Shown here piece after piece: positions 9,869-17,967 of a stretch of 64,000 nt of DNA. Under the pieces are notes generated by a model that saw only the letters and a program-made list of their open reading frames with translations, ran no database searches and was not told the DNA's origin. Source of the stretch: Syntrophales bacterium (GTDB taxonomy: Bacteria > Desulfobacterota > Syntrophia > Syntrophales > UBA6807); contig JAXGPA010000004.1 in the NCBI GenBank assembly GCA_040767195.1, positions 1 through 64,000 on the forward strand. Direction: 5' to 3'. The position numbers were made by a program, and so were the translations under genes. How positions within the stretch are numbered: the first letter of the stretch is position 1; every line of letters starts with the position of its first letter.

Positions 9869-11530
9869 CTAGTCCTTGAAGACCGCGCCGGTGCTGGCCG
9901 ACGTGACGAGCCTGGCGTAGCGGCCCAGGTAGCCTCCCCGGACGGGCGGTTCCCAGGGTTTCAGGGCCTTTTTCCGTTTTTCCATTTCCCTGGCCGTAAT
10001 TTTGAGGTCCAGCCGCCTTCCCGGAATGTCGATGGCGATCCGGTCCCCTTCCCGGACCAGGGCGAGGGGGCCCCCTTCCGCCGCTTCCGGCGAGATGTGG
10101 CCGATGGCCGCTCCCCGGGTGCCGCCGCTGAACCGCCCGTCGGTGAGAAGGGCCACCGAGGTGTCGAGCCCCATGCCGGCGATGGCCGACGTGGGGGCGA
10201 GCATCTCCCGCATCCCCGGGCCGCCCCTGGGGCCCTCGTAACGGATGACAATCACGTCCCCGGGCTTGATCTCCCCCCCGAGGATCGCCTGGATCGCCTT
10301 CTCCTCGCCGTCGAAGACCCGGGCCCGGCCCTCGTTGACCATCATTTCCGGGGCCACAGCGGACTGCTTCACCACCCCTCCGTCGGGTGCTAGATTACCC
10401 CGGAGAATGGCGATGCCGCCCTCGGGCGAGTAAGGGGTTTTCGGGCTTCGAATCACCTCGCGGTCCCGGACCGCCGCGTTTTTCAGGTTTCTTTTCACAG
10501 GCAAAGCCGTCGCGGTCAGGCAGTCCCCCCGGATCAGGCCCAGTGCCTCGATTTCCTTCATCACGGCGGGGATGCCGCCGGCCCGGTGAAGGTCCTCCAG
10601 GTGGTGGGGCCCGGCGGGGCTCAGGTGGCAGAGGTTGGGCGTCTTCGCGCTGATCTCGTTGAAAAGGTCGAGATCGAGGACGATACCCGCCTCCCGGGCG
10701 ATGGCGGGGAGGTGAAGAACCGTGTTGGTGGAGCACCCGAGGGCCATGTCCACGGCGATGGCATTCCGGAAAGCGTCGGGGGTGGCGATGTCCCGGGGGC
10801 GGATGTCCCTTTTCAGGAGCGTCATGACGGCCATCCCGGCCTGCTTCGCCAGGCGGCGCCGGGCCGCGTGAACGGCGGGAATGGTCCCGTTTCCCGGAAG
10901 GCCGAGGCCGATGGCCTCGGTGAGGCAGTTCATGGAATTGGCGGTGAACATGCCCGAACAGGACCCGCAGCCCGGGCAGGCCTCGTCTTCCAGGGCCGCC
11001 ATGTCCCGTTGCCGGAGCTTGCCCGCCTTGACCTTTCCCACGCCCTCGAAAACGCTGATGAGGTCCACCGTGGCGCCCCCGGCGAGACCGGCCATCATGG
11101 GGCCGCCGCTCACGACAACCGTCGGGATGTTGAGGCGGAGCGCCGCCATGAGCATGCCCGGGACGATCTTGTCGCAGTTGGTCACCATGACGAGGCCGTC
11201 GAAGGGGTGGGCCATGGCCATGATCTCGATGGAATCGGCGATGAGTTCCCGGCTCGCCAGGGAGTATTTCATGCCTTCGTGGCCCATGGCGATGCCGTCG
11301 CAGACGCCGATGGCGGGAAATTCCACGGGCGTGCCCCCGGCCATGCGGATGCCCGCCTTGGCATCCTGGGCCAGCAGGCCGAGGTGGACATGGCCGGGGA
11401 TGATCTCGTTGGCCGAGTTGACCACCCCGATGAGGGGTCTCCCCAGTTCCTCGTCGGTGTAGCCCATGGCCTTGAACAACGACCGGTGGGGGGCCCGCTC
11501 GAGGCCCTTTTTCATGATGTCGCTTCTCAT
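9869..11530 (-). CDS. ilvD: dihydroxy-acid dehydratase
   Basis: [84 protein letters not shown]. Confidence 0.96.
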
Positions 11531-11609: not shown

Positions 11610-11735
11610 GGCGGCTTTGTAAAAAGCGCCGGAGGCAAGGCGCCCGAAGCCCGAGGAATGAGGCGTACCTGTTGGTACGCCGCAATGACGAGGAAAGAAG
11701 GGCAACGCCGCCTGTGGACTTTTTACGAAGTCGTC
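11610..11735. repeat. intergenic palindromic-ended repeat (REP/MITE-like), copy 1
   Basis: Ends are GGCGGCTTTGTAAAAAG and CTTTTTACGAAGTCGTC; central GGCGTAC-N-GTACGCC hairpin; homologous to 33960..34084 and 52042..52094. Confidence 0.85.
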
Positions 11736-11738
11736 AAA

Positions 11739-12791
11739 CTATTTTTTCCGCCGTTCCGGTCTCAATTCCCGGAGAACCGCGCCGGCCTGCCACATCTCCA
11801 TGTTCCGCATCTCCGACAGTTCCCGGTCCAGGCGTTCCCGGTAGTCCGGGGCGCTGTTCGCTTCCAGGACGATGGCCGTCTCCTTCCCCGTTTTCACCCG
11901 GTCGTAGAGTTCGTCGAACACGGGGAGCACGGCCTCCCGGAACCGCCCCTTCCAGTCCAGGGCGCCCCGCTGGGCGGTGGTGCTGCAGTTGGCGTACATC
12001 CAGTCCATGCCGTTCTGGCCCACCAGGCCGATGAGGCTCTGGGTCAGTTCCTCCACCGTCTCGTTGAAGGCCTCGCTGGGGCTGTGCCCGTTCTTCCGGA
12101 GCGTCTGGTACTGGGCCTCCATGATGCCCGCCAGGGCCCCCATGAGAACGCCCCGCTCACCCGTCAGGTCGCTGTAGACCTCGTTCTCGAAGGTCGTCGG
12201 GAAGAGGTAACCGGAACCGATGGCGATGCCCAGGGCGACGGCCCGCTCCTTCGCCCGGCCCGTGGCGTCCTGAAAAACGGCGACGCTCGAGTTGATGCCG
12301 CTCCCGGCGATGAAGTTCGCCCGCACCGTCCGGCCCGCCCCCTTGGGGGCCACGAGAATGACGTCAACGTCCGCCGGGGGGACGACGCCCGTCAGTTCCT
12401 TGTAGGTGATGGAAAACCCGTGGGAGAAATAGAGGGCCTTCCCTCTCGTCAAAAAAGGCTTGACCTTCGGCCACAGGGCCTTCTGTCCCGCGTCGGAAAG
12501 CATGTACTGGAGGATGGTGCCCCGCTTCGCCGCCTCCTCGATGGGAAAAAGGGTCTCCCCGGGGACGAAGCCGTCATCGAGGGCCTTCTTCCAGGTGGCC
12601 CCGCCCTCGCGCTGGCCGATGATGACCCGGACCCCGTTGTCCCGGAGATTCTGGGCCTGTCCCTGCCCCTGGACGCCGTAACCCAGGACGGCCACCGTCT
12701 CGTCCTTCAGGACTTCCCGGGCCTTTTCAAGAGGAAACTCTTCCGCCGTGATGACTTCTTCCTCGATGCCGCCGATGGTGATTTTTGCCAT
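11739..12791 (-). CDS. ilvC: ketol-acid reductoisomerase
   Basis: LGYGVQGQGQAQNLRD, FSHGF, VAPKG, SDLTGERGVLMG, EAFNETVEE, MDWMYANCSTTAQRGALDW; AAGGAG RBS. Confidence 0.95.
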   Translation of the reverse strand: MAKITIGGIEEEVITAEEFPLEKAREVLKDETVAVLGYGVQGQGQAQNLRDNGVRVIIGQREGGATWKKALDDGFVPGETLFPIEEAAKRGTILQYMLSDAGQKALWPKVKPFLTRGKALYFSHGFSITYKELTGVVPPADVDVILVAPKGAGRTVRANFIAGSGINSSVAVFQDATGRAKERAVALGIAIGSGYLFPTTFENEVYSDLTGERGVLMGALAGIMEAQYQTLRKNGHSPSEAFNETVEELTQSLIGLVGQNGMDWMYANCSTTAQRGALDWKGRFREAVLPVFDELYDRVKTGKETAIVLEANSAPDYRERLDRELSEMRNMEMWQAGAVLRELRPERRKK

Positions 12792-12946
12792 GGATTTTCT
12801 CCTTTGTGAATGTCTTTGAATGCCTGTCCCGCGCACGTCAAAAAAGCGGGTCCGAAGGATCGGCCTGCGAGGTCCGCCGTCCCGGCGGTAACCCGAAGGG
12901 CCGGAGGGGACCCGACGGCCTGCCGGTGGAACCCTCGACCACCGCC

Positions 12947-13423
12947 CTACCTGAGAAAAATAACGCCGGACCGGCTCAAGTCCTCGATTCCCAGGGGCGT
13001 AAGCCCCTTCAGGACCCAGTCGATCTCCTCGAGGGTGCCGGTGACCTCGAGAATACAGTGATCCGGCTCCATCCGAAGGGTCCGGCAGTGAAAATTCTCG
13101 ATATCTTTCTTAATCTTTTCCCGGTTTTCCTCCCGGAAGGGGATCCGGACGAGGACCATTTCCCTGAGAATGGTCCTGTCGTTCCCGGCGATGTTGAATT
13201 CCAGCACATCGACGAGTTTCCGGAGCTGTTTTTCGATCTTGCTCACCGTGGCCGTGTTTCCCTTCGTCACCAGGGTGATCTTGGTCATGTCCGGGTTGAG
13301 GGTCACGTTGGCGCTGATGGATTCGATATTGAAGCCCCTGCCGCTGAAGATCCCGGCGATCCGGGCCAGCACGTCGGGCTTGTTGTTCACCAGAAGGGTC
13401 ATCTTGTGTTCTTTGATTTCCAT
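12947..13423 (-). CDS. ilvN: acetolactate synthase small (regulatory) subunit, copy 1, with Asp at the Gly14-equivalent site
   Basis: ACT domain NNKPDVLARIAGIFSGRGFNIESI, KQLRKLVDV, REMVLV, SRSG. Confidence 0.9.
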   Translation of the reverse strand: MEIKEHKMTLLVNNKPDVLARIAGIFSGRGFNIESISANVTLNPDMTKITLVTKGNTATVSKIEKQLRKLVDVLEFNIAGNDRTILREMVLVRIPFREENREKIKKDIENFHCRTLRMEPDHCILEVTGTLEEIDWVLKGLTPLGIEDLSRSGVIFLR

Positions 13424-13440: not shown

Positions 13441-15144
13441 CTATCCTTTTTTACGTCCCAGGTCCATCTCCGTCAGGGAGGCACCGGGCCCCACCATGGG
13501 GTAGACCCCCTCCTCGGGGTCGACGGCCATGTCCATGAAGACCGGCCCCGGGGTTTCGAGCCCCTGTTTCAGGACCGCTTCCATCTCCTCCGGCCGGGTC
13601 GCCCGGAGCCCCGTGGCCCCGTAGGCCTGGGCGAGTTTCACGAAATCGGGGACCTGGCTGATGTTCGTGTGGGAATACCGCCGCCCGTAGAAGATCTCCT
13701 GCCATTGCCGGACCATGCCGAGGAACCCGTTGTTCAGGATGACGACCTTCACGGGAATGTTGTAGTTCACCACCGTGGCCAGCTCCTGGATGTTCATCTG
13801 GATGCTCCCGTCGCCGGCGATGTCCAGGACCGTCCGGTCCGGGCAGGCCACCTGGGCCCCGATGGCGGCGGGAAAGCCGTACCCCATGGTCCCCAGGCCC
13901 CCCGACGTGAGAAACTGGTTGGGCCGGTTGAAACGGTAGAACTGGGCCGCCCACATCTGGTTCTGCCCCACCTCGGTGGCCACCACGGCCTCGCCGCCGG
14001 TGAGCCGGTAAAGGGTTTCGATGACGCACTGGGGCTTGATCATGTCCCCGGAATCGTAGCAGAGCGGGGCGTATTCCCGCCACTTGTCGATCTGCCCGAG
14101 CCACGCGCCCAGATCATCCGCGGACAGGACGTTCTTCTCCTGCTCGAGCATCTGGGTCAGCTGGTGGAGGGCCGTCCGGCTGTCGCTCACGATGGGGAGG
14201 TCGACGAGGACGTTCTTGTTGATCGATGCGGGGTCGATGTCGATGTGAACGATTTTCGCCTGGGTGGCGAAATCGGAAAGCCGGCCCGTCACCCGGTCGT
14301 CGAACCGGACCCCGATGGCGATGATGAGATCGGCATGGCTCACGGCCATGTTGGCGTAGTAGGTTCCGTGCATCCCCGGCATGCCGAGCCACAGGGGGTC
14401 CGTTCCCGGGTAGGCCCCCAGCCCCATGAGGGTCGAGGTGATGGGAATGCCCGTGGCCCGGACGAATGTCCGGAGCTCCTCGGAGGCCCGCCCTAAAATG
14501 ATGCCCCCGCCGGTGAGAATGACGGGGCGCTTCGCTTTCCGGAGCATTCCGACGACCTGCTGCAGGGCCTCCGTGTCGGGAAGATAGGAGGGCTCCCGAA
14601 GGCAGGCTGAAGGGATTCCCGAGGGCTCGTAGACCGCCGTGCCCTGGGCGACGTCCTTGGGAAGGTCCACCAGGACCGGGCCGGGACGGCCGCACCGGGA
14701 GAGGTAGAAAGCCTCCTTGACAGTCCTGGCGAGGTCCGCCGTCCGCCGGACGATGTAGTTGTGCTTCGTGATGGGCCGCGTGATGCCCGTGATGTCCGCC
14801 TCCTGGAAGGCGTCGGACCCGATGAGGGCCGTGGAGACCTGGCCGGTGAAGACGACGATGGGGATGGAGTCCATGTAGGCCGTGGCGATGCCCGTGACCG
14901 TGTTGGTCGCCCCGGGACCGGATGTCACCAGGCAGACCCCCGTTTTACCCGACGCCCGGGCATACCCGTCCGCCGCGTGGGTGGCCCCCTGCTCGTGGCG
15001 GACAAGGATGTGCCGGATCTCGCCCTTGTGCAGCTCGTCGTAAATATCGAGAACGACACCGCCGGGATACCCGAAAATGGTGTCCACACCTTCCTCAAGA
15101 AGGGCCTTGATGAGTATCTGCGCTCCCTTCAGTTCCACGTTCAC
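13441..15144 (-). CDS. ilvB: acetolactate synthase large subunit, copy 1 (Ile-attenuated)
   Basis: FGYPGG, RHEQGATHAADGYAR, TSGPGATN, GRPGPVLVDLPKD, RFDDRVTG, SGGLGTMG, GDGS...NNGFLGMVRQWQ; GTG start after AGGAGG. Confidence 0.95.
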   Translation of the reverse strand: MNVELKGAQILIKALLEEGVDTIFGYPGGVVLDIYDELHKGEIRHILVRHEQGATHAADGYARASGKTGVCLVTSGPGATNTVTGIATAYMDSIPIVVFTGQVSTALIGSDAFQEADITGITRPITKHNYIVRRTADLARTVKEAFYLSRCGRPGPVLVDLPKDVAQGTAVYEPSGIPSACLREPSYLPDTEALQQVVGMLRKAKRPVILTGGGIILGRASEELRTFVRATGIPITSTLMGLGAYPGTDPLWLGMPGMHGTYYANMAVSHADLIIAIGVRFDDRVTGRLSDFATQAKIVHIDIDPASINKNVLVDLPIVSDSRTALHQLTQMLEQEKNVLSADDLGAWLGQIDKWREYAPLCYDSGDMIKPQCVIETLYRLTGGEAVVATEVGQNQMWAAQFYRFNRPNQFLTSGGLGTMGYGFPAAIGAQVACPDRTVLDIAGDGSIQMNIQELATVVNYNIPVKVVILNNGFLGMVRQWQEIFYGRRYSHTNISQVPDFVKLAQAYGATGLRATRPEEMEAVLKQGLETPGPVFMDMAVDPEEGVYPMVGPGASLTEMDLGRKKG

Positions 15145-15188
15145 ACCTCCTGATCGGATCCGCCGGGCTTGACAAGCCCGCTTTTCTC

Positions 15189-15220
15189 AAAAAAAAACCG
15201 CTACCCTCGGGGTAACGGTT
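15189..15220 (-). terminator. attenuator terminator upstream of ilvB copy 1
   Basis: AACCGTTACCC-CGA-GGGTAGCGGTT stem running into a 9-nt U tract. Confidence 0.88.
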
Positions 15221-15245
15221 CCTGTTTCGTCCTCTCGCCGGAAGG

Positions 15246-15335
15246 CTAAACCATCACCCCGCCCCTTCTGAAGGGAATAATTATACCGATGATCGCAATT
15301 TCCAACTGCTTCGGGGATGGGGAAAACACTGCCAT
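15246..15335 (-). CDS. Ile-rich attenuator leader peptide MAVFSPSPKQLEIAIIGIIIPFRRGGVMV
   Basis: 29 aa, absent from the ORF track; 6 Ile in 8 codons; its 3' end is complementary to the 5' arm of the downstream terminator. Confidence 0.85.
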   Translation of the reverse strand: MAVFSPSPKQLEIAIIGIIIPFRRGGVMV

Positions 15336-15364
15336 AGCCACCGGGAATCCTATTCGATTCCGGT

Positions 15365-15394
15365 ATCCCTAACAGCATCAGGCGGTCTTGTCAA
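15365..15394 (-). promoter_or_regulatory. putative internal promoter for the Ile leader/ilvB1
   Basis: Perfect TTGACA, 17 nt spacer, then TAGGGAT (weak -10, preceded by TG); about 30 nt upstream of the leader ATG. Confidence 0.5.
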
Positions 15395-15404
15395 GATGAT
15401 ATTT

Positions 15405-15905
15405 TCAGGCCGGGCCTCCCTTCTTTTCCTTGGGCAGTGCGATGATGCCCGTTCTCGCCGCTTCGCGGATGCCCAGGTCCCGAAAATACTGGAGAAGCGT
15501 TTCCGTTTCCTCGCTCGTCCCCACGGCCTGAAAAACGGCGTAATCGTCTTTCATGAAAATCAGCTTGCCGTTGAAAAGCTCCATGGCCTTGAGAATATCG
15601 GCCCGGCGCTCCTGGGGAAAATCCAGGCCCAGGAGGGCCACTTCCCGCTGCAGGGACCGGGACGGGGCGAGTTCCTCTACCTCGATGACGTCCACGAGCC
15701 TGTCCAGCTGCTTCCGGACCTTGTCGGTGAAATTCGAGTTGGCCCGGCTCATGAGGGTGATCCGGGACGTGTCCGGGTCGAGGGTGGGCGCCACGCAGAG
15801 GCTTTCGATGTTGTAACCGAGCCTTCCGAAAATCCCGGACACCCGGGAGAGAACGCCCGGCTTGTTCTGAACGAGGAGTGACAGGATGTGTTCTTCGCCA
15901 TTCAT
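15405..15905 (-). CDS. ilvN: acetolactate synthase small (regulatory) subunit, copy 2, with the canonical Gly
   Basis: QNKPGVLSRVSGIFGRLGYNIESL, KQLDRLVDVIEV, REVALL, ARTG. Confidence 0.9.
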   Translation of the reverse strand: MNGEEHILSLLVQNKPGVLSRVSGIFGRLGYNIESLCVAPTLDPDTSRITLMSRANSNFTDKVRKQLDRLVDVIEVEELAPSRSLQREVALLGLDFPQERRADILKAMELFNGKLIFMKDDYAVFQAVGTSEETETLLQYFRDLGIREAARTGIIALPKEKKGGPA

Positions 15906-16076
15906 TGTACTCGCGTCTCCTTTTGCTTGCTCATCGTCTTGTGATAGGGTCTTTTACCGCCCCCGCCATGGGGGGCGCGGCGACGCTTCGAAACCGGTGT
16001 TTCCACCGGTACGGACCCGGGACCGGTCCGCTCCCGCCCGGAACCCAAGGCGGGGCGGCCCTTCGGGCCGCCGCCG

Positions 16077-17753
16077 TCAGTCCGATCTCCCGTAGATCAT
16101 TTCCATGTTCGATTTTCCGGGCGGGATAATGGGATAGACATAGTCCCCGGGAGGGACCATGACTTCCAGGAGATAGGGCCCGTCACTTGCGGCGAGGCGC
16201 TCGATGGCCCCCTCGGGCTTTTCCGCCCCGACCCGCTCCGCTTCCAGGCCGAAGCCCCGGGCCACGGCGACGATGTCCGTTTTTTCCCCGAGCTGGCAGG
16301 CGCTGAGCCGGGACCCGTAAAAAAGGTCCTGGATCTGGCGGATCATCCCCAGGTGGCCATTGTTGAAGACGATGATCTTGACGGGCACCTGGTAATAGCT
16401 GATGGTGGCCAGCTCCTGGATGTTCATGAAAAACCCGCCGTCGCCGGTGAAAGACACGACGTTCCGCTTCGGGTTTCCCACCTTGGCCCCGATGGAGGCG
16501 GGAAGGCTGAAGCCCATGGTCCCCATGCCGCCGCTGGTGAGGAGCCCCCGGGGGGACTTCGATTTCCAGGACCGGACCGTCCAGATCTGGTTCAGTCCCA
16601 CGTCGGCGACGGCGATGGCCGTCGGGGACAGGGCCTCCTGGACCAGGCCGATGAGCCGCCCGGGCAGGCCGCAGCCGTTGTAGCTGTTCTTCGCCTCCAG
16701 GGACTCCCGCTCCTTCTGGATCCTGTCTTTCCAGTCGCCCCTTTCCTTTTCGTCGACGAGGCCGATGAGCCCGGAAAGGGCTTTCCGGATGTCGCAGACG
16801 AGAGCCAGGTCCGCCTTGATGTTCTTGCCGATGGACGTGGGGTCGATGTCGATCTGGGCGATCGTCGCCAGGGGAGCGAACTCCTCCACCTTGGAGGTGC
16901 TCCGGTCGGTGAAACGGGTCCCCACGGCGAGGATGAAGTCGGACTGGTGGATCATCCGGTTGGCCAGTTCGAACCCATGGGTGCCGATGAATCCCAGGTT
17001 GAGGCCGTTGGCGATGCACACGGCTCCCACGCCCATCATGGTGCTCACGAAGGGGATGTTCCCCCGTTCGATGAGTTCCGTGATGAGCTGGCAGGCACCG
17101 CTGAGCTTGACGCCCCCGCCGATGATGAGGATGGGCCTTTCCGCCTGGTTCAGGGCCTGGGCGATGCGGTTCAGGATGCCTTCGTCCAGGGCGTGGCCGT
17201 TCCCCGTCTTCTTCATGGCCGGTTCCTCCGGCCTGATTTCCGCCTCGGGGCAGCGGCCCGCCAGGACATTCCGCGGAAGGTCCACGAGGACCGGCCCCGG
17301 CCGGCCCTGCTTGGCCAGGGAAAAAGCCTGCTTGAGGGTCGTCCGCATGTCCCTGGGGTCCCGGACAAGGAAGCTGTGCTTCGTGATGGGCATGGTGATC
17401 CCGATGATGTCCGTCTCCTGGAAGGCGTCGGTCCCCAGGAGGTCCGTGGGAACCTGGCCCGTGAGGGCCACCACGGGGGAGGAGTCCATGTAGGCCGTGG
17501 CGATCCCCGTGACGAGGTTCGTCGCCCCCGGCCCCGAGGTAGCCAGGCAGACCCCCACCTTTCCCGTGGCCCGGGCGTAACCGTCGGCGGCATGGGCGGC
17601 GGCCTGCTCGTGACGCATCAGGTAATGCCGGATCGTGTGGTCGATGAGTCCGTCATGAATGGGCAGGGTATTTGCCCCGGGATAGCCGAAGATGGCGTCC
17701 ACCCCTTCTTCCTTCAACGTCTCCAGAAGGATCTGTGCACCGTTTCTTTCCAT
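16077..17753 (-). CDS. ilvB: acetolactate synthase large subunit, copy 2 (Val-attenuated)
   Basis: FGYPGA, RHEQAAAHAADGYAR, TSGPGATN, GRPGPVLVDLP, SGGMGTMG, GDGG...NNGHLGMIRQIQ; AGGAG RBS before ATG 17753. Confidence 0.94.
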   Translation of the reverse strand: MERNGAQILLETLKEEGVDAIFGYPGANTLPIHDGLIDHTIRHYLMRHEQAAAHAADGYARATGKVGVCLATSGPGATNLVTGIATAYMDSSPVVALTGQVPTDLLGTDAFQETDIIGITMPITKHSFLVRDPRDMRTTLKQAFSLAKQGRPGPVLVDLPRNVLAGRCPEAEIRPEEPAMKKTGNGHALDEGILNRIAQALNQAERPILIIGGGVKLSGACQLITELIERGNIPFVSTMMGVGAVCIANGLNLGFIGTHGFELANRMIHQSDFILAVGTRFTDRSTSKVEEFAPLATIAQIDIDPTSIGKNIKADLALVCDIRKALSGLIGLVDEKERGDWKDRIQKERESLEAKNSYNGCGLPGRLIGLVQEALSPTAIAVADVGLNQIWTVRSWKSKSPRGLLTSGGMGTMGFSLPASIGAKVGNPKRNVVSFTGDGGFFMNIQELATISYYQVPVKIIVFNNGHLGMIRQIQDLFYGSRLSACQLGEKTDIVAVARGFGLEAERVGAEKPEGAIERLAASDGPYLLEVMVPPGDYVYPIIPPGKSNMEMIYGRSD

Positions 17754-17784: not shown

Positions 17785-17820
17785 AAAAAAGCCGCATCTT
17801 TCATCGAGGTGCGGCTTTTT
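17785..17820 (-). terminator. second (distal) terminator T2 of the Val attenuator
   Basis: AAAAAGCCGCACCT-CGATGAA-AGATGCGGCTTTTTT hairpin with U tract. Confidence 0.8.
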
Positions 17821-17823
17821 CCG

Positions 17824-17860
17824 AAATAAAAAAGCCGCGGGCCTTTCGGGGCCCGCGGCT
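17824..17860 (-). terminator. attenuator terminator T1 upstream of ilvB copy 2
   Basis: 11-bp stem AGCCGCGGGCC-CCGAAA-GGCCCGCGGCT followed by TTTTTATTT. Confidence 0.9.
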
Positions 17861-17880
17861 CCTTTTCGATCTAACGTTTT

Positions 17881-17967
17881 CTAAGGCAGAGCAGCGGTCC
17901 CCGTCTTTACGACGACTACGACTACAGCCACGGCTACCGTGCTTGCCAGGGAATGTCTGTCAGCCAT
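17881..17967 (-). CDS. Val-rich attenuator leader peptide MADRHSLASTVAVAVVVVVVKTGTAALP
   Basis: 28 aa, absent from the ORF track; 8 Val codons, 6 of them consecutive; AGGTG RBS; 3' part complementary to the T1 5' arm. Confidence 0.9.
   Translation of the reverse strand: MADRHSLASTVAVAVVVVVVKTGTAALP

Follow-up and report, generated by a model that had tools for sequence, protein, structure and literature searches.

A candidate isoleucine-sensing attenuator before one of two AHAS gene pairs in Syntrophales

In the ilv cluster of a Syntrophales bacterium, an isoleucine-rich leader peptide gene lies between two pairs of AHAS genes. We propose that it belongs to a ribosome-mediated attenuator that senses isoleucine and controls the downstream enzyme, IlvB1N1, which is predicted to be dedicated to isoleucine; the partner enzyme, IlvB2N2, made behind a Val-rich leader, would supply valine and leucine. 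We give this reading, drawn from sequence, folding models and analogy with E. coli enzymes, a probability of roughly 0.7. As to its parts, the attenuator itself is almost certainly real, and sequence and analogy make it probable that the two enzymes form a product-dedicated pair.

AHAS serves both valine/leucine and isoleucine synthesis. Balancing the two is an old problem, and E. coli keeps three isozymes. The sequence points to a tidier arrangement, in which each branch would have its own enzyme and its own attenuator for a single amino acid, with active-site and feedback residues to match. For Syntrophales at large we lean towards a wider model, in which a valine-deaf, 2-ketobutyrate-selective AHAS and citramalate synthase would share an Ile-only attenuator regulon, a valine-inhibited acetolactate-maker would stand under a Val(+Leu) leader, and leaders would be retuned codon by codon upon loss of ilvB2 or leuA, so that codon content reads out the enzyme's job. 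Such a system would offer repeated natural reversions on loss of one AHAS copy. For strain engineering it would supply two natural candidates, an AHAS biased to isoleucine and insensitive to valine and an AHAS biased to acetolactate, and in uncultured syntrophs the codons of a leader would tell, by rule, the function of the enzyme behind it.

The ilv cluster and its internal leader

The window (the whole stretch of 64,000 nucleotides analysed) carries on its minus strand, in this order, a Val leader and terminator (17967..17833), ilvB2, ilvN2, the Ile element, ilvB1, ilvN1, ilvC and ilvD. Both large subunits score above the cut-off of TIGR00118 and both small subunits above that of TIGR00119, which marks the two pairs as biosynthetic AHAS (IlvB/IlvN). 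IlvB1 and IlvB2 are 45% identical. The start of ilvB1 is a GTG at 15138, 7 nt past AGGAGG.

17881..17967, minus strand: partner Val leader MADRHSLASTVAVAVVVVVVKTGTAALP, an open reading frame; its RNA family is other than that of the Ile element, whose model has no match there
17833..17860, minus strand: terminator of the Val attenuator, from folding
16077..17753, minus strand: ilvB2, AHAS large subunit, Ile474 replacing Trp (GMIRQIQ); TIGR00118
15405..15905, minus strand: ilvN2, AHAS small subunit retaining Gly17; TIGR00119; stop at 15405
15389..15394, minus strand: -35 box TTGACA of the internal promoter
15365..15374, minus strand: extended -10, TG-T-TAGGGAT, 17 nt past the -35 box
15348..15351, minus strand: AGGA, likely ribosome-binding site of the leader
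15246..15335, minus strand: leader ORF MAVFSPSPKQLEIAIIGIIIPFRRGGVMV, 29 aa, ATG at 15335 to TAG at 15246
15276..15299, minus strand: control codons 13-20, six Ile in eight (ATT, ATC, ATC, ATA, ATT, ATT)
15273..15281, minus strand: segment 1, the last two Ile codons plus CCC, pairing with segment 2 in the protector hairpin
15249..15261, minus strand: segment 2, the antiterminator strand CGGGGUGAUGGUU
15189..15221, minus strand: intrinsic terminator, comprising segment 3 (15220..15208), loop, segment 4 and U9
13441..15138, minus strand: ilvB1, AHAS large subunit with Trp479 (GMVRQWQ); TIGR00118, 821 bits
12947..13423, minus strand: ilvN1, AHAS small subunit with Asp17 at the valine-site glycine of E. 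coli IlvH; TIGR00119, alignment to 2f1f
11739..12791, minus strand: ilvC, downstream in the ilvB1 unit; profile match
9869..11530, minus strand: ilvD; profile match

To collect homologues of the element, each species was represented by one genome and scanned with a pattern, which gave 87 stretches. By reading, 72 of them immediately precede an orthologue of ilvB1, and their records are mostly labelled Syntrophales, Syntrophaceae or Deltaproteobacteria; the remaining 15 are unrelated chance matches. Together with loci from 41 relatives, the pattern loci make up 80 distinct Syntrophales elements before ilvB1.

An earlier sequence-only reading of this DNA had described a 29-residue leader with six Ile in eight codons, and that frame is present at 15335..15246; an in-frame GTG at 15341 is an alternative start that would give 31 residues. 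The same reading held that the Ile codons stand out by ending in A or T. The bias is real and modest: Ile codon usage in the genome is ATC 0.78, ATT 0.16 and ATA 0.06, and only four of the six codons end in A or T. In a loose genome-wide scan for short ORFs followed by a terminator, which returned 156 candidates, an Ile run occurs only in this leader, and the adjoining Val leader is the only one with at least six Val.

The proposed promoter, TTGACA-17-TAGGGAT, is also present, and its conservation is strong. TTGAC[AT] precedes the leader in 79 of 80 homologues, against 36 of 808 background windows, and TG-n-TA follows at the 17-nt spacing (T63 G61 n T70 A69 of 79), although a consensus promoter scan of the window did not list the site. 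This conservation backs the suggestion that ilvB1 may be transcribed independently of the Val unit. The ribosome site named in the same reading, GGTGG, exists 2 nt from the ATG; AGGA at 15351..15348, which is 6 nt before the in-frame GTG and 12 nt before the ATG, is the likelier one, and by eye similar AGGA or GGAT motifs precede the leader ATGs of relatives.

Downstream of the control codons lie the strands of three competing hairpins. The pairing claimed between 15261..15249 and 15220..15208 is exact, all 13 pairs being standard, two of them G-U. The terminator (15221..15196, with nine U at 15197..15189) has a folding energy of -19.1 kcal/mol (z -4.4, matched by 1 of 200 shuffles) and the antiterminator region one of -25.6 kcal/mol (z -2.5, matched by 3 of 200). 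The whole leader-to-terminator stretch folds no better than shuffles (z -1.0 and -1.6).

How would the ribosome set the choice between these helices? Stalled on codons 13-20, it would cover segment 1, leaving segment 2 free to capture the 5' arm of the terminator; with the antiterminator formed, RNA polymerase would read into ilvB1-ilvN1-ilvC-ilvD. With a ribosome past codon 22, or with none, the terminator would form. A masking model, in which the ribosome covers about 12 nt beyond the A site, behaves in this way. For RNA out to 15198, the modelled probability of the antiterminator is 0.97-1.00 with the ribosome at codons 9-21. That of the terminator is 1.00 with the ribosome at codon 22 or any later codon up to the stop, and 0.98 when the RNA carries no ribosome. 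Once the RNA reaches 15196, with the 3' arm of the terminator fully out, the antiterminator holds only 0.42-0.90 with the ribosome on the Ile codons; the switch would therefore be partly kinetic, and timing would matter.

The arrangement of the cluster bears on what the switch would control. Of 27 tandem loci, 25 lack a U-run terminator in the stretch from ilvN2 to the internal promoter, so transcripts of the Val unit likely also enter the Ile attenuator. A TTGAC promoter before ilvC is absent from all 67 loci examined, and a hairpin with a U-run precedes ilvC in only 4 of 67. With no separating terminator and no ilvC promoter, ilvC and ilvD would depend on read-through of the Ile attenuator, and valine starvation would raise their expression only by feeding more transcripts into it. 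In one clade ilvC is placed after ilvB2N2 instead.

Several other structured stretches were seen in the cluster. On the minus strand, a second hairpin with a U-run follows the Val terminator at about 17815..17785 and recurs in many relatives; the Ile element has a single terminator. On the same strand, GC-rich structured spacers lie between ilvN1 and ilvC (12950..12835, six T after) and between ilvB2 and ilvN2 (16080..15905). The ilvC-ilvD intergenic region (11745..11620) is repeat-like and by eye resembles a stretch upstream of ilvB2 in another locus, L045. Past the Ile terminator, 15180..15164 forms a palindromic hairpin that, read on the plus strand, is a terminator-like site containing TTGACA; the alignment of relatives gave no sign of its conservation.

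Residues and leader codons of the two AHAS copies

In a 143-row FastTree tree the large subunits form two clades, B1 and B2. The Trp of IlvB1, which aligns with the plant AHAS Trp, is present in all 82 distinct large subunits of the B1 clade and in none of 60 of the B2 clade, where the site holds Ile (34), Met (17), Leu (7), Tyr (1) or Val (1). The small subunits differ at one site as sharply. Asp17 of IlvN1 aligns with the valine-site Gly of E. coli IlvH, and IlvN2 keeps the Gly; across loci, the subunit beside B1 has Asp in 72 of 73 cases (the exception, L168, is a distant outlier) and all 59 subunits beside B2 have Gly. The change to Asp seems to have arisen within the order, because in a sample of 151 genomes of the phylum the 25 small subunits from outside the order that are closest to IlvN1 all carry Gly. 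A restriction of Asp17 to genomes with two AHAS was considered and rejected, Asp being found in all B1-clade small subunits, including those of single-AHAS genomes.

These residues can be read against E. coli enzymology. In the portion of PMC5727371 on which we draw, the Trp of AHAS binds 2-ketobutyrate and its replacement by Leu loses the preference; AHAS I has Gln at the site and no such preference; and changing the conserved small-subunit Gly makes AHAS III valine-insensitive. Part of a preprint (bioRxiv 10.1101/2020.12.01.406439) lists ilvH G14D,S17F as a feedback-resistant allele. In our alignment the Gln of E. coli AHAS I falls at the site of IlvB2 Ile474. At the level of residues only, IlvB1N1 resembles AHAS II, having the second-substrate Trp and having lost the small-subunit Gly.

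By this analogy IlvB1N1 is predicted to prefer 2-ketobutyrate and to be insensitive to valine, which would leave its control to isoleucine at transcription. IlvB2, lacking the Trp, would make mostly acetolactate (the effect of Ile, Met or Leu at this site in Syntrophales IlvB2 is extrapolated), and IlvN2, with its Gly, would keep valine feedback. Val would be counted by the leader of ilvB2, and Leu as well in genomes that make leucine by that route. Isoleucine alone is likely what the internal leader senses, since IlvB1N1 is predicted to be isoleucine-dedicated and its residues for substrate choice and feedback are opposite to those of its partner; the sequence-only reading gave no reason for this restriction to one amino acid.

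If leader codons follow the enzyme's job, they should depend on gene content. We sought ilvB2 in the 41 relatives and in 44 genomes behind pattern loci (the other pattern loci mostly carry ilvB2 on the same stretch) and counted leader codons in a fixed span of control codons; in all these counts, related genomes are not independent of one another. The counts leave out seven duplicates, one outlier, two ambiguous genomes, five ilvB2 loci missed by the pattern and the ilvB1 of genome G029. That genome is without the internal attenuator, and the one leader it has, upstream, is mixed. Where ilvB2 is present, ilvB1 leaders have a median of 7 Ile and 1 Val, with at least three Val in 1 of 60. Where ilvB2 was not found, the medians are 2.5 Ile and 5 Val, with at least three Val in 18 of 26. 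Nine of these 18 Val-rich leaders use the Val-type RNA, and eight of the nine have an Ile codon in the counted span. On the tree the 18 comprise one 15-row clade, one pair and single lineages, or about 3-5 independent events. The 56 ilvB2 leaders have medians of 0 Ile, 6 Val and 2.5 Leu. Leu codons in Val-sensing leaders, in turn, follow leuA: among 33 leaders of the 41-genome set they are present in 20 of 23 genomes that have leuA and in 0 of 10 that lack it, and the genome of the window is one of these ten.

The same scaffold reaches beyond the cluster. A covariance model of the Ile element finds one site in the genome of the window and sites in 16 of 151 phylum genomes; three of the sites lie directly before cimA, and three weak matches look like unrelated terminators. 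Of 31 further cimA upstream regions 30 match the scaffold, the one miss being a contig end, and the cimA leaders on it have a median of 7 Ile and 0 Val. None of nine leuA loci has the scaffold upstream. Outside the order it precedes ilvD, ilvB or leuA operons, and also cimA-like genes assigned by N-terminal sequence only. Five genomes there that share the RNA scaffold have one AHAS each, and in four of them (G124, G161, G226, G118) the leaders ahead of the AHAS operon mix Ile, Leu and Val.

The most serious alternative accepts an attenuator that is real and senses isoleucine and holds that the AHAS copies are largely redundant, the two leaders acting as an OR gate that responds when valine or isoleucine is short, without product specialisation. 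We consider it unlikely, though it has facts on its side. Many genomes have IlvB1N1 as their sole AHAS, covering every need with its Asp and Trp unchanged; 8 of 26 ilvB1 leaders are Ile-only though ilvB2 was not found, including those of G010 (100% complete) and G012 (97%); and ilvC and ilvD, needed for valine too, sit behind the Ile attenuator, which speaks against the split. Against redundancy, the loss of Trp in 60 of 60 B2 subunits and the Asp in 72 of 73 IlvN1 subunits match the leader split as E. coli enzymology, in the part of PMC5727371 cited above, predicts. Gain of Val by B1 leaders is confined to genomes that lack B2; the counter-case is G070, which has both ilvB2 and a Val-rich ilvB1 leader, and whose ilvB2 locus is 97% identical to that of G037. 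Moreover, the same Ile-only scaffold marks cimA. We therefore prefer the product-dedicated pair.

Other observations concern gene content. In G016 and G037 (98% and 96% complete) only a Trp-less B2-type AHAS with a Val-only leader was found, yet both have cimA with an Ile leader. G001, of the same genus as the window's genome and 100% complete, has no match to ilvB or ilvD but does have cimA with an Ile leader (L211), the reverse of the window's genome; in the latter, a 98.8% complete assembly without Ns, ilvA, cimA, leuA and leuC found no match. A LeuB-like gene in that genome (C1:861540) is 42% identical to the genus mate's leuB and, by eye, follows a malic-enzyme-like gene. We rejected the idea that Ile control moved to AHAS for want of threonine deaminase or citramalate synthase, as 35 of 41 relatives have cimA over the cut-off. 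Carboxylation of propionyl-CoA is described, in the part of PMC7476758 consulted, as another route to 2-ketobutyrate.

Conservation of the element

The central proposal of the sequence-only reading, ribosome-mediated attenuation specific to isoleucine, gains support from the conserved promoter, start, Ile run with synonymous variation, stop and helices, together with the masking model. The element has a leader ORF with a run of product codons, an intrinsic terminator between that leader and the first gene, an antiterminator that in silico excludes the terminator according to ribosome position on the control codons and, by conservation, a promoter upstream of the leader.

The helices are conserved to different degrees. 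In the terminator 100% of cells are paired and four pairs show two-sided change, a result reached by 0 of 500 shuffles in sets of 20 and of 41 sequences; the pattern by which the latter were partly chosen includes both arms. The protector helix (segments 1:2) is paired in 87.7% of cells in 41 sequences, and its covariation score was reached by 2 of 500 shuffles. For the antiterminator 93-97% of cells are paired (96.7% in one of the alignments), with no covariation within the ilvB1 family; one pair, considered in register only, differs between ilv loci (G-C in 33 of 44) and cimA loci (A-U in 19 of 32).

Might the Ile-rich frame be a by-product of an AU-rich helix strand, before a terminator that is constitutive or controlled by a protein or ligand? 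The last Ile codons do double as segment 1 of the protector helix, and the ribosome site of the window's leader is weak. This explanation is nevertheless very improbable. An in-frame ATG is kept in 80 of 80 homologues, and in 65 of 80 the leader stops at one position, a TGA inside TGATGG in the antiterminator strand. All three Ile codons interchange across the 80 (ATT 209, ATC 148, ATA 113), in genomes lacking ilvB2 this scaffold carries a run of Val codons instead, and none of the riboswitch or T-box models of Rfam matches the element.

The leader in the window is one base shorter than those of relatives and reads on through VMV past the TGATGG-type stop, which places Val-Met-Val inside segment 2; that it senses Ile and Val together through V27 and V29 is the most far-fetched reading of all, as segment 2 is masked when the ribosome stands at codons 27-29, where the modelled terminator probability is 0.97-1.00, and 65 of 80 relatives stop before these codons.

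Relation to known attenuators and to other leaders

Attenuation is a textbook mechanism, and the one proposed here is that of a classical attenuator; what is new is the system, an Ile/Val leader split matched to a pair of AHAS enzymes. Lopatovskaya, Seliverstov and Lyubetsky reportedly predicted, in 2010, that attenuators precede ilvB and leuA in a number of groups, delta-proteobacteria among them, and the bare element may already be among their predictions.

The closest likeness is to E. coli ilvL, which precedes ilvGMEDA and its AHAS II (attenuation at ilvL and ivbL is treated in the part of PMC6123439 consulted). Both have a leader peptide, the 1:2 / 2:3 / 3:4 logic and an IIP motif before a G-rich segment, and both control a Trp-bearing AHAS (GMVRQWQ in ilvG). 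They differ in that ilvL is mixed in Ile, Val and Leu (MTALLRVISLVVISVVVIIIPPCG...) and the Syntrophales control region is Ile-only; the Syntrophales model matches ilvL weakly (17.4 bits, E 0.17). AHAS II is likewise described as valine-insensitive (PMC5727371, in part), but for the Syntrophales enzyme insensitivity is predicted from Gly-to-Asp in a small subunit of the two-ACT type (158 aa), not from an IlvM-type subunit. The Val unit has a functional analogue in E. coli ivbL, a Val-rich leader without Ile before the Trp-less (Gln) AHAS I of ilvBN, so that half of the logic is already present in E. coli; the Ile model has no match to ivbL. Descent of IlvB2 from an E. coli-type AHAS I is unsupported. 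AHAS I is 40% identical to IlvB2 and 42% to IlvB1, and the AHAS split therefore looks independently evolved.

For neither leader did the family collections yield a family: Rfam gave no match at gathering, only sub-threshold unrelated ones, and Pfam and NCBIfam gave none at E 10. The element lies outside the curated ilvL and ivbL families, though it would work like ilvL. Three other motifs, the Corynebacterium ilvB-II uORF, ilvB-OMG and the Leptospira ilvB motif (PMC10272879, PMC11109978, PMC8632094), resemble it in placing a uORF-controlled terminator/antiterminator before ilvB; unlike it, they are said to be rich in several branched-chain amino acids and come from other taxa. The portions of these three papers' text consulted mention neither Syntrophus nor paired isozymes. 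A literature search that covered main texts brought up neither this element nor a division into Ile and Val leaders in Syntrophales; the supplements of the Breaker surveys may list further uORF candidates.

Further amino-acid leaders were seen along the way. The upstream regions of leuA (L240-L248) carry Leu-rich leader ORFs in an RNA family distinct from the Ile element. In the genome of the window, a Trp leader (..MSWWWRSH..) with a terminator and a second hairpin lies before trpE (Pfam Anth_synt_I_N, Chorismate_bind) at C6:53790-53707 on the minus strand. On the same strand of another contig (C7:about 139300-139239), a Phe-rich leader, MKRSRLSGIFCFFFSFRRRSA, with a terminator like that of the Val attenuator, precedes a Peripla_BP_6 ABC binding protein and is likely a Phe-sensing attenuator on a transporter.
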